Source: Ostreococcus lucimarinus
Taxonomy: Eukaryota
DNA: 64,000 bases
Assembly (NCBI GenBank): GCA_000092065.1
Contig: CP000581.1
Direction: 5' to 3' (one strand)
The position numbers and the translations under genes were made by a program. Each line of letters begins with the position of its first letter. The stretch's first letter is position 1. Below are positions 6,632 to 8,701 of the stretch, one piece after another. The notes beneath the pieces are model-generated. The model saw nothing but the letters and a program-made list of their open reading frames with translations. It was not told the DNA's origin and made no database searches.

Positions 6632-8701
6632 CTATTGCTCGTCCGAACTAAAGATTTGCTCCCTTGCCTTTTCGTATCCGCGGTTTCCGTGGTTTCCGTG
6701 GAACACTTTGTTGAACACTTTTCTCCACGCGCCACCTTGTTGCAATTCTTCGGTCGTCGCCGGTTGCAATCCACGACGCTCGGATTGCTTCCGCCCTAAC
6801 GCAGCCTCGCGCGGGATCCCAGAACCAGAAGCTTCGTTTTGCATCTCCGCAGCTTCAACGACTTTCGCGACGTTTTCGTGGCGAATGTTGTGCCCATCCT
6901 CCTCCGAGTCTTCGTCGATGGCGTCGTACGCATCGTTGACCTCTTCTTCGACACCTAATTTCGGAATCGAGCGTCTAAGTTTTTCGTGCGTCTTTTCATT
7001 GTGACCTTTAACCTTCGACAGGTACTTTGCCGCTGCGGCTTCAGACATTTTGCCAACCTTCGCGCCAGATATGTCGGATGAGCGAGACTCAGTGTGCGTC
7101 GATGCCTTCACCGTTGGCTCCGGCGCGTCGTTCCAGTCCAAAGACTTTGATTTCGTCGATGCCTTCTTGTTCGTTGACGCCGACGATGACGAGTGTGCCG
7201 CAGTCTTTTTCGATTTTTCCGGTTCGTCCGACCAATCATCGTCGCTCAACGCGCTCGCCTTCTTCGACTTGTGCGGTGACTGCTTTGATGTCGACGGCGG
7301 CGCGTCGGACCAATCATCGTCGCTCAACCTGGACGCCTTCGCCGACGGTTTCTTCTTAGTTTCCGTAGCTCGATCGCGCTTTCTATGCTCGACGTGTTTA
7401 CTCGCGTCTTTTGACGTCACTTGCAGCGAAGACATCAAGTCATCCATGTCCACATTCTCCTCCTCGTGCTTACCAGTCTTCGCGGATCGACTCGGATACG
7501 CGTGCGTGCCATCCGTCGCGGGATAGTTGGAAATGTCAATGTTCGTGTCAACCGTAAGCCCGTCCAAACGCCCGCTCCCGCCTCGAGGCGTCAGTCCACG
7601 CCCATATTTAAAGTCGTCGATCGTATCTTGATCGTATTCCCCCAAATCTAGCAAATCCTTCTGCTTGTAAAACACGTTGACGTCGTTGGCGTCGTTTTCA
7701 TCCACGTCGTGAATGTGGTGCGGGTATTGCTTAAGCTTGCCACTTCCGCGCGAAGATCTCTCGTCGCGTGAGCCGCTACCGCGTGCTCGCGTCATCAAGC
7801 GATCGAGGTGTGATTGCACGCGCTCCTTGAGCGACGAGGGCTTCTTCTTTCGGTTGAAGCTCAACTCGTTGAACACCATCGAGTCCAACTTGTTCGACTT
7901 CTTCGACGACGCGTGAGACGATTTCAAACGCGAATCATCAGCCTCGGAGCGTTTAACAGTCGACTTCATGGTTGACTTCTTGGTCGGCTTCTCGACATGT
8001 TTGACGTGTGTTTCTTTACCTTTCGAACTCGACTCTTTGTCATGCGAGTTGTGTTCGACGGTCTTCGCCTTGGGTTCGTCTCGCACCCACGATTTCCCCG
8101 TTTTGTGCTTCTCCGCATGGTCGGCGTCAACCATCAAGTCCGCCAGCGAAATGTCATCACTCGGTTTACTGGTTTTCCCCAGATCTGGTGCGTCCTCGTA
8201 TTGCTTCTCGATGCTCCCTTGCTTGACCAAATTAACTATATCACCCACGAAATCACCGACGAAATCCGCATTCTTCGGCGCCACCACTGTCGCCGCCGGC
8301 AGCGCCGCGGGCGTTTGTAAGCGCGCGGGCGCGACTGGCACCGGCGAAGGCACAGCCGCCTGCGACGTCCCTATCGCGGCGCTGGCGCGATGGTTGATCA
8401 GCGATACGCGGTGCTGCCCAAAGTGAGGATCGTACGCAATCTCCGGCTGCGTCACTTGATCGTACTCTTGCGCCCAACGCTTGGCCAACCCGCCCGTGCG
8501 GTCGGGGTGCACCTCGCGCACGACGTCCGATTGGAACGACCCGAAATCCAACTTCCGCACATCCAGCGCGTTGTTACGTATCAATTCGCTCGTCCAATCA
8601 CCACCGGCGCTCCCAAGTCTCGCGACGCCGCGCGGCGAAGCAGACGTCGTCGTCGCGCCCGCCGCGCAGATCACCATCGCGCCCAGCGTCACCGCCGCCA
8701 T
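6632..8701 (-). CDS. Secreted or membrane-anchored Ser/Lys-rich low-complexity protein with W-acidic DDDWSD repeats
   Basis: The track ORF (6632..9793) overlaps the DUF1365 gene, so it is trimmed to ATG 8701 (MAAVTLGAMVICAAGATTTSASP signal/anchor). The body is K/S/D-rich and contains repeats SRLSDDDWSDAPP / SALSDDDWSDEPE / SLDWNDAPEP. Confidence 0.45.
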   Translation of the reverse strand: MAAVTLGAMVICAAGATTTSASPRGVARLGSAGGDWTSELIRNNALDVRKLDFGSFQSDVVREVHPDRTGGLAKRWAQEYDQVTQPEIAYDPHFGQHRVSLINHRASAAIGTSQAAVPSPVPVAPARLQTPAALPAATVVAPKNADFVGDFVGDIVNLVKQGSIEKQYEDAPDLGKTSKPSDDISLADLMVDADHAEKHKTGKSWVRDEPKAKTVEHNSHDKESSSKGKETHVKHVEKPTKKSTMKSTVKRSEADDSRLKSSHASSKKSNKLDSMVFNELSFNRKKKPSSLKERVQSHLDRLMTRARGSGSRDERSSRGSGKLKQYPHHIHDVDENDANDVNVFYKQKDLLDLGEYDQDTIDDFKYGRGLTPRGGSGRLDGLTVDTNIDISNYPATDGTHAYPSRSAKTGKHEEENVDMDDLMSSLQVTSKDASKHVEHRKRDRATETKKKPSAKASRLSDDDWSDAPPSTSKQSPHKSKKASALSDDDWSDEPEKSKKTAAHSSSSASTNKKASTKSKSLDWNDAPEPTVKASTHTESRSSDISGAKVGKMSEAAAAKYLSKVKGHNEKTHEKLRRSIPKLGVEEEVNDAYDAIDEDSEEDGHNIRHENVAKVVEAAEMQNEASGSGIPREAALGRKQSERRGLQPATTEELQQGGAWRKVFNKVFHGNHGNRGYEKAREQIFSSDEQ
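7127..7319. repeat. Imperfect tandem repeats encoding the DDDWSD(A/E)P motif; 21-nt core GACCAATCATCGTCGCTCAAC at 7230..7250 and 7299..7319
   Basis: The identical 21-mer occurs twice 69 nt apart, with a degenerate third copy near 7127..7146. Confidence 0.6.

Follow-up and report, generated by a model that had tools for sequence, protein, structure and literature searches.

A genus-restricted, fast-evolving disordered protein of Ostreococcus with a conserved N-terminal dileucine-type motif and a candidate membrane anchor

Species of the genus Ostreococcus are the smallest free-living eukaryotes, and with some 8,000 genes they serve as a minimal model, in which every conserved lineage-specific gene makes up a sizeable part of what sets the genus apart. 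Here we describe one such gene, located in a stretch of 64,000 nucleotides of Ostreococcus lucimarinus DNA (GenBank assembly GCA_000092065.1, contig CP000581.1) that we call the window throughout. The minus strand of this window carries a single-exon coding sequence (CDS), 8929..6632, which runs uninterrupted over 765 codons and closes with a TAG stop at 6632-6634. A preliminary description of the region, made from the sequence, had rightly recognised a long minus-strand open reading frame (ORF) terminating at 6632, but had read it from a start at 8701 as a secreted protein with repeated Trp-acidic motifs. The region is a genuine protein-coding gene, found only in the genus Ostreococcus, and its product belongs to a previously undescribed, genus-restricted and fast-evolving family of disordered proteins. 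This observation is real in itself, even if the kind of protein that we propose below, a single-pass membrane protein that bears a dileucine signal and a disordered tail, is a familiar one and not a new category of system. The features of the gene are the following:

6632..8929, minus strand: complete CDS in the corrected gene model; orthologues align over its entire length, and the identical protein is called on 4 independent contigs.
8894..8920, minus strand: N-terminal motif DDRAPLLPE, residues 4-12, which fits [DE]xxxL[LI] and also PxxPxR.
8705..8740, minus strand: juxtamembrane block EEVCEGRTRRVR, residues 64-75, with an acidic patch, a near-invariant Cys and then an invariant R..RVR basic cluster.
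8633..8704, minus strand: weakly hydrophobic segment TMAAVTLGAMVICAAGATTTSASP rich in Ala, Gly and Thr, residues 76-99, taken as a candidate for a signal-anchor or transmembrane (TM) helix; the "signal peptide" of the preliminary description begins here.
8417..8623, minus strand: conserved domain right after the anchor, residues 103-171, with the pattern ..LG..DW..L...N.LD.R.LDFG....V.P...GG.AK.W..EY..V.
7892..8116, minus strand: fast-evolving Lys/Ser-rich low-complexity linker, residues 272-346, with 17% identity across lineages and a predicted local distance difference test score (pLDDT) <50.
7583..7744, minus strand: most constrained block, residues 396-449, QYPHHxHDxDENDxND..FYKxxDLLDLGEYDxxTIDDFKYGRGLxPR.
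7295..7333, minus strand: Trp-acidic copy 1, SRLSDDDWSDAPP, residues 533-545; D539 and W540 are invariant in a 12-sequence alignment.
7217..7255, minus strand: Trp-acidic copy 2, SALSDDDWSDEPE, residues 559-571; D565 and W566 are invariant in the same alignment.
7118..7153, minus strand: Trp-acidic copy 3, KSKSLDWNDAPE, residues 593-604, which alone has an equivalent at the same position (SLDWSDD) in the most distant members.
6635..7066, minus strand: conserved C-terminal helical module, residues 622-765, KVGKMS...AAKYLSKVKGHN..TH....P.LG / GHN.RH...AKVVEAA / ALG / GGAWRKVF / Y..AR.QIF.

The position of the start codon decides how this protein is understood. The minus-strand frame stays open from 9793 down to 6632, because the DNA is GC-rich, and it offers in-frame Met codons at 9793, 9145, 8929, 8923 and 8701, plus others downstream. 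The portion of the frame upstream of 8929 encodes Arg-rich nonsense, antisense to a DUF1365 gene that starts at 9179 on the plus strand. In the alignment of orthologues, conservation sets in exactly at the ATG at 8929 (MAMDDRAPLLPER...), in the form M-x-x-[DE]-R-A-P-L-L-P-[ED]-R, with R6, A7, P8, L9, L10 and P11 invariant among 12 aligned sequences. Residues 1-60 show a ratio of nonsynonymous to synonymous substitution rates (dN/dS) of 0.34 against the nearest relative, and the ratio for the whole CDS is 0.43 against the orthologue of 86% identity. Independent gene callers arrive at the same model of 765 residues, and the exact product from 8929 is found on four independent assemblies. Because conservation starts at 8929, the callers agree and the codons upstream of 8701 are under purifying selection, we place the CDS at 8929..6632.

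The start at 8701 thus has to be given up: the 76 codons on its 5′ side are conserved in every orthologue, whereas other lineages have Ala, Val or Thr in place of the Met encoded at 8701. This correction matters in practice, since with the later start the protein would be taken for a secreted one. As 76 conserved residues precede the hydrophobic segment (residues 76-99), the segment is internal and a cleavable N-terminal signal peptide is unsupported; signal peptides have their hydrophobic core within the first ~30 residues, and the conserved product of 765 residues has none there. The preliminary description had itself allowed that a start elsewhere would leave no signal peptide, and with the start at 8929 simple secretion falls as well. 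From its "signal/anchor peptide", the anchor survives, as the best TM candidate in every orthologue, if a marginal one, and the signal peptide does not.

Among the cluster members listed, the exact product of 765 residues comes from Logan and ENA sources only, and the remaining members of its cluster, again among those listed, trace to JGI, Tara, Logan or ENA; none of them bears a protein accession of NCBI or UniRef. ARPC4 from the same neighbourhood is, by contrast, present in NCBI and UniRef for O. lucimarinus. Given that no NCBI or UniRef entry appears among the members listed, the reference annotation may lack the 765-residue model or use another.

Relatives in a set of 5.8 billion proteins fall into 11 clusters, with lengths of 711-820 residues, one of them holding a 99%-identical protein of 765 residues. 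An exhaustive profile search with hidden Markov models over 1.84 billion representative proteins gave 19 matches, all of them full-length or fragmentary members of one family, and two full-length members, P0068 and P0069, are more distant. The relatives align with the target from end to end. In Pfam the protein matched 0 families at E<=1, in a profile search of the PDB it had 0 matches at E<=10, and a scan of viral contigs gave no viral relatives. Every readable locus has the order DUF1365, target gene and a membrane protein of ~860 residues, and the longer contigs share HemN, a gene that we call X, ARPC4, Lipase_3, DUF1365, the target, the ~860-residue membrane protein, Methyltransf_16 and TRAP-beta. 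In O. tauri, the orthologue would be expected some three genes away from TRAP-beta (OT_ostta01g01085). Between lineages, the DUF1365 neighbour keeps 66-78% identity while the target keeps 32-48%, and from this gap the family looks confined to Ostreococcus-level diversity and appears to evolve much faster than its neighbour.

These comparisons also bear on the suspicion that the frame could be an untranslated, GC-rich artefact. It does run spuriously upstream to 9793, the region holds several long overlapping antisense ORFs of the kind usual in GC-rich DNA, and no peptide evidence turned up, a look-up of invariant tryptic fragments and neighbouring gene IDs in the supplements of O. tauri (phospho)proteomes having given no hits and being uninformative. 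However, at least 9 diverged lineages retain the full-length frame, all indels in it being in frame; conservation comes in blocks, where dN/dS drops to as little as 0.04, and synteny is conserved. We regard the artefact as effectively refuted by the pattern of conservation.

In the AlphaFold model of the full-length protein, disorder is interrupted by isolated short helices, with a mean pLDDT of 41 and a predicted template modelling score (pTM) of 0.18. About one third of the length consists of non-repetitive conserved blocks, which alternate with Lys/Ser-rich linkers, and identity over the whole protein is 40% across four lineages. The earlier picture of an almost entirely low-complexity protein was therefore overstated. 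By frequency, the residues rank S, A, K, D, R, E. In the chain behind the anchor, 108 Lys and Arg stand against 107 Asp and Glu (net charge per residue 0.002, charged fraction 0.32), which does not make an acidic protein, and this part contains 0 Cys and 0 N-x-S/T sequons.

The preliminary description had suggested an adhesin, or an acidic protein associated with biominerals or scales, and neither finds support in such a chain: the strong negative charge of biomineral, scale or matrix proteins is missing at a net charge per residue of 0.002, and O. lucimarinus is a naked organism without scales, wall or biomineral, hence without a mineralised or scaled covering. Taken as a whole, a start at 8701 followed by a cleaved signal peptide and a secreted or surface-bound adhesin or acidic scale protein is highly improbable. 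The peptide MAAVTLGAMVICAAGATTTSASP taken alone does resemble a signal peptide, and the chain is indeed Ser/Lys/Asp-rich, but the conserved upstream codons under purifying selection, the unconserved Met, the naked and scale-less cell, the net charge close to zero and the lack of Cys and of N-glycosylation sequons all speak against it.

The N-terminal tail begins with a motif that every orthologue with a credible start carries at residues 3-8 as [DE]..PLL (DRAPLL, ERAPLL or DASPLL). The DDRAPLLPE block is 78% identical across 4 lineages, compared with 40% for the protein overall, and it is the only Met-proximal match of the [DE]xxxL[LI] type in the 48,663 residues of reading frames in the window. 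The acidic dileucine pattern [D/E]XXXL[L/I], known from cargo of AP-1/2/3, is present in every lineage as a match of sequence. This consensus includes the signal DERAPLI of LIMP-2, which is sorted by AP-1/AP-3 (PMC5297682), and in plants a D/EXXXLL motif targets VIT1, NRAMP3 and NRAMP4 to the vacuole (PMC11922923). DDRAPLL in the target and DERAPLI in LIMP-2 are nearly identical, and LIMP-2 (SCARB2), tyrosinase, VIT1, NRAMP3 and NRAMP4 all share with the target a [D/E]XXXL[L/I] signal with a Pro before the Leu pair, in a terminal tail adjacent to an anchor, which in the target is a candidate one. Beyond the motif none of these proteins is homologous in sequence to the target; LIMP-2 has two TM helices and its luminal domain is folded and glycosylated, and VIT1, NRAMP3 and NRAMP4 are polytopic transporters, unlike the target.

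Residues 13-63 are charged and poorly conserved, with one predicted helix, and the 76 residues of the tail include 14 Asp or Glu. Conservation returns in the juxtamembrane block (residues 64-75, 74% identity across lineages), where the pattern EEVC...R..RVR has E65, V66, R70, R73, V74 and R75 invariant in the alignment. A twin-arginine or thylakoid-lumen signal was discarded for this block, as the position of the RR pair is variable (RTRRVR versus RTTRVRR) and the tail upstream holds 14 acidic residues.

The segment that follows, residues 76-99, is uncharged, rich in Ala, Gly, Thr and Val, and the sole hydrophobic candidate in the protein. Its Kyte-Doolittle mean over 19 residues is 1.3-1.8 across orthologues, the top hydrophobic window in all but one of them. 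The predicted free energy of insertion is -0.01 to +1.14 kcal/mol, and its protein-wide minimum falls on this segment in every orthologue (values from a re-implementation of the Hessa 2007 scale, sanity-checked on poly-Leu, poly-Ala and glycophorin A). AlphaFold draws a helix from 69 to 94. Across lineages the segment keeps its composition at a sequence identity of 25%, and such a drift in sequence with the character retained is as expected of a lipid-facing helix. Directly N-terminal to the candidate TM segment, orthologues have 4-5 Arg, and this cluster speaks for an N-in orientation, with the C-terminus exoplasmic. Acidic dileucine signals function only in the cytosol and would, together with the Arg cluster, place the N-terminus in the cytosol and the C-terminus on the exoplasmic side.

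On these grounds we tentatively favour, with a probability of roughly 0.4, a type II single-pass membrane protein that has a LIMP-2-like acidic dileucine signal in its N-terminal tail and a disordered domain in the lumen or outside the cell. The analysis itself establishes the gene model, its conservation, the disorder, the array of motifs and the restriction to one lineage; membrane insertion and orientation, adaptor recognition, the destination and the identity of any ligand are the parts that we infer. The cytosolic N-terminal tail, of ~75 residues, would start with the acidic dileucine signal [DE]-R-A-P-L-L-P, of the type known from LIMP-2, tyrosinase and plant VIT1-NRAMP3, and would display the near-invariant Cys and the Arg cluster (EEVC..R..RVR) towards the cytosol. 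The membrane would be crossed by a short helix, weakly hydrophobic and rich in Ala and Gly, and the remaining ~670 residues would lie on the luminal or exoplasmic side as a charge-neutral, intrinsically disordered polyampholyte. Adaptors of the AP type might read the signal in the tail and route the protein, coming from either Golgi or cell surface, to a compartment that is endosomal or vacuole-like, and the tethered chain could serve as a scaffold either in that compartment or as it cycles over the surface of the naked cell. Partners would putatively be bound by the domain that follows the anchor, by the DLLDLGEYD..DDFKYG block, by the DW[SGN][DE] motifs and by the helices rich in His and Lys at the C-terminus, with the Lys/Ser-rich linkers between them free to evolve. 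The disorder of the chain and its lack of Cys behind the anchor also count in favour of this reading. The orthologues have 0-1 N-x-S/T sequons each versus 2-4 expected, local shuffling included, a shortage that gives a weak hint of selection on a chain passing the lumen of the endoplasmic reticulum (ER).

Several observations weigh against a type II topology. The segment is marginal (about 0 to +1.1 kcal/mol, a Kyte-Doolittle value of only 1.3-1.8, Ala/Gly/Thr-rich), so that insertion into the ER is not assured, and in several orthologues the C-terminal flank is basic too, with up to 5 Lys or Arg, which weakens the positive-inside argument. Short conserved linear motifs and amphipathic helices within a polyampholyte of Lys, Asp, Glu and Ser are seen more typically in proteins of the cytosol or nucleus than in exoplasmic domains, and the other conserved motifs (LLDLG, and Trp beside acidic residues) resemble motifs that bind coats or motors in the cytosol. 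The depletion of sequons is statistically weak in most lineages (P 0.01-0.45). No evidence on expression or localisation, and none from proteomics, turned up, the O. tauri supplements being uninformative here as well.

A weak helix between two basic flanks is a signature of signal- and tail-anchored organelle proteins. The low hydrophobicity and the basic flanks on both sides in several orthologues would accordingly suit an anchor in the chloroplast outer, mitochondrial outer or peroxisomal membrane instead of the ER. We consider this quite unlikely, because the anchor lies 70-90 residues into the protein, behind a charged tail with 14 Asp or Glu, unlike N-terminal signal anchors or transit peptides, and because an organelle anchor leaves the invariant [DE]xxPLLP at the extreme N-terminus unexplained.

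The conserved blocks behind the anchor differ in how tightly they are held. In the domain of residues 103-171, which is retained in the most distant members, L105, G106, L127, G130, P142, G146, G147, W152, Y166 and F170 are invariant. The block of residues 396-449 has 76% identity across four lineages, dN/dS falls to 0.04 over residues 413-472, and the core [FW]YK..DLLDLGEYD..T[IV]DDFK[YF]G.GL is kept even in the most distant members. The clathrin box is defined in ELM by the pattern L[IVLMF].[IVLMF][DE], and the invariant DLLDLGEYD departs from it with a Gly at the fifth position. The C-terminal module (residues 622-765) is 53% identical across lineages, with 40 invariant columns among 10 sequences; modelled alone by AlphaFold, it forms helices without confident packing (pLDDT 57, pTM 0.25). 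A pyrenoid Rubisco-binding reading of the GGAWRKVF element in this module was rejected, as the element departs from [DN]W[RK]xx[LIVA] and the N-terminus does not look like a transit peptide.

Five LG dipeptides are conserved throughout the family, distant members included, at residues 105-106, 250-251, 429-430, 658-659 and 711-712, in the contexts ARLG, APDLG, DLLDLG, PKLG and AALG. Two GHN-x(2-3)-H motifs and one YPHHxHD motif are conserved family-wide too. The LG dipeptides and the His motifs are possible processing sites or metal ligands.

The three Trp-acidic copies reported in the preliminary description are all present, at residues 533-545, 559-571 and 593-604, and copies 1 and 2 do share 21 identical nucleotides (gttgagcgacgatgattggtc). 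This identity lies inside a direct repeat of 49 nucleotides, 82% identical, with a spacing of 78 nucleotides. Among 200,000 composition-preserving shuffles of the sequence, none had >=4 matches to D-W-[SGNTD]-[DEGS], and only 11 had even one DW[SN]D[AE]P; the number of motifs is not due to chance. In the relative of 84-86% identity, repeat copies 1 and 2 are orthologous copy for copy, so that the duplication is older than the split and neither a recent nor an assembly event. Concerted evolution was rejected for these repeats, as the copies pair between species and not within species. The linkers around the DW motifs have a dN/dS of ~1.3 against the nearest relative, a value based on few substitutions.

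After the Trp, the copies in the window have Ser or Asn (DDW-S-D, DDW-S-D, LDW-N-D), and the orthologues have S, G, T or N, with the sole exception of MDWDDE in the orthologue fragment P0067. The W-acidic motif read by kinesin light chain (KLC) has its Trp between Asp or Glu on both sides, as in EWD and LEWDD, or in TNLEWDDSAI of SKIP (PMC6214655). The motifs of SKIP, calsyntenin-1, nesprin-2 and gadkin resemble those of the target in that a Trp sits in an acidic disordered context, in two or three repeats. They differ from them by the Asp or Glu on both sides of the Trp, where the target has Ser, Asn, Gly or Thr at p+1, and the strict pattern therefore does not match. The likeness to cytosolic Trp-acidic adaptor motifs noted in the preliminary description is a resemblance only, and under the topology that we favour the DW motifs would lie on the wrong side of the membrane for KLC. 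Readings of the Trp motifs as LC3-interacting regions (LIR/Atg8), gamma-ear ligands (GAE), DPW motifs or PEX5 WxxxF motifs were discarded as well, since the required hydrophobic or Pro positions are missing.

These resemblances are the core of a different proposal, in which the weak helix does not span the membrane, or is a peripheral anchor perhaps aided by S-acylation of the nearby Cys, and the whole chain stays in the cytosol as a scaffold with an array of motifs for the trafficking and motor machinery: ExxxLL, the clathrin-box-like LLDLG, and DW[SGN][DE] in the manner of the KLC W-acidic or DPW appendage motifs. The marginal energy of insertion would agree with it, as would the polyampholyte composition and the predicted disorder with helices. 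Moreover, three different conserved motifs are each one step away from a known ligand of cytosolic coats or motors, Leu at p-2 and Asp at p-1 make copy 3, and its counterparts in distant members, similar to TNLEWDDSAI of SKIP, and one orthologue fragment has MDWDDE. The strict patterns fail nevertheless, LLDLG being without an acidic fifth residue and nearly all copies carrying Ser, Asn, Gly or Thr at p+1. As for the DLLDLG block, it extends over ~30 largely invariant residues, unlike a linear motif of 5 residues, and in every lineage a conserved basic cluster is followed by an uncharged, anchor-like helix of 16-31 residues. We hold an entirely cytosolic scaffold to be possible but doubtful.

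Composition, disorder, basic clusters and acidic-aromatic motifs would likewise fit a nuclear or chromatin protein, in which Lys/Ser tracts together with RTRRVR, HRKRDR and KKKP serve as nuclear localisation signals or nucleic-acid binders, and the acidic-aromatic motifs as anchors for histones, by analogy with histone chaperones. Such a role would leave both the conserved uncharged helix behind the basic cluster and the dileucine-type motif at the N-terminus unexplained, and neither Pfam nor the profile search of the PDB detected similarity to any chromatin family; it seems very unlikely.

The type II arrangement that we favour has known counterparts. TMEM106B is a type II lysosomal protein with a disordered cytosolic N-terminus that carries a dileucine-type signal, one TM helix and a larger luminal C-terminal part (PMC5297682). 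This architecture is the one proposed for the target, by analogy. The two differ in that TMEM106B has an extended signal, ENQLVALI, a folded luminal domain and N-glycosylation relevant to its sorting, whereas the target is disordered, lacks a sequon and has no Pfam family match. Triadin, junctin and junctate are also type II proteins, in which a short cytosolic N-terminus and a single TM helix are followed by a long luminal polyampholyte, rich in Lys, Glu and Asp, that acts as a scaffold for partners in the lumen. They are architectural analogues only, animal proteins of the sarcoplasmic reticulum with KEKE motifs and without any sequence relationship to the target.

The gene would thus join a sorting signal of the type used for animal lysosomes and plant vacuoles to a long disordered chain with few strongly constrained motifs. 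If its topology were confirmed, it would offer a handle on post-Golgi sorting, and on a luminal or surface matrix, in a very reduced endomembrane system, together with a natural set of new Trp-acidic motifs. A bolder version of the type II reading may be considered, unlikely as it is: the protein would be a genus-specific, dileucine-sorted type II protein whose polyampholyte, with its Trp-acidic and His/Lys modules, forms a post-Golgi storage matrix or a coat on the naked surface; in the latter place, interaction with prasinoviruses or other partners from outside would account for how fast it diverges.

Around the target, some neighbouring genes deserve mention, one of which is identified by an exact match:

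11235-11750, plus strand: ARPC4 gene, an exact match to XP_001415417.1 of O. lucimarinus CCE9901.

Adjoining ARPC4 is gene X (~11864-13216, minus strand), which starts with MDDDDDDEYEVVGYG and has no Pfam match. Three Ostreococcus lineages share in this gene a conserved KAPVGF[DN]W[DN] with a poly-Asp/acidic tract behind it (~12990-13080). This second acidic-Trp motif is unrelated to those of the target, and resembles the acidic-Trp tails of Arp2/3 activators. The convergent downstream neighbour of the target (3971-6550, plus strand) encodes a polytopic membrane protein of ~859 residues, with no Pfam match at E<=0.1, and it keeps its place next to the target in all lineages examined, the most distant ones too.

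Across the entire window (1-64000), no Rfam family attained its gathering score. Stretches of low GC content (0.49-0.53) occur at 24001-28000, 42001-46000 and 50001-52000, against an average of ~0.6 for the window. The target region at 6001-8000 is also low in GC (0.53), because of its Lys-rich coding sequence.

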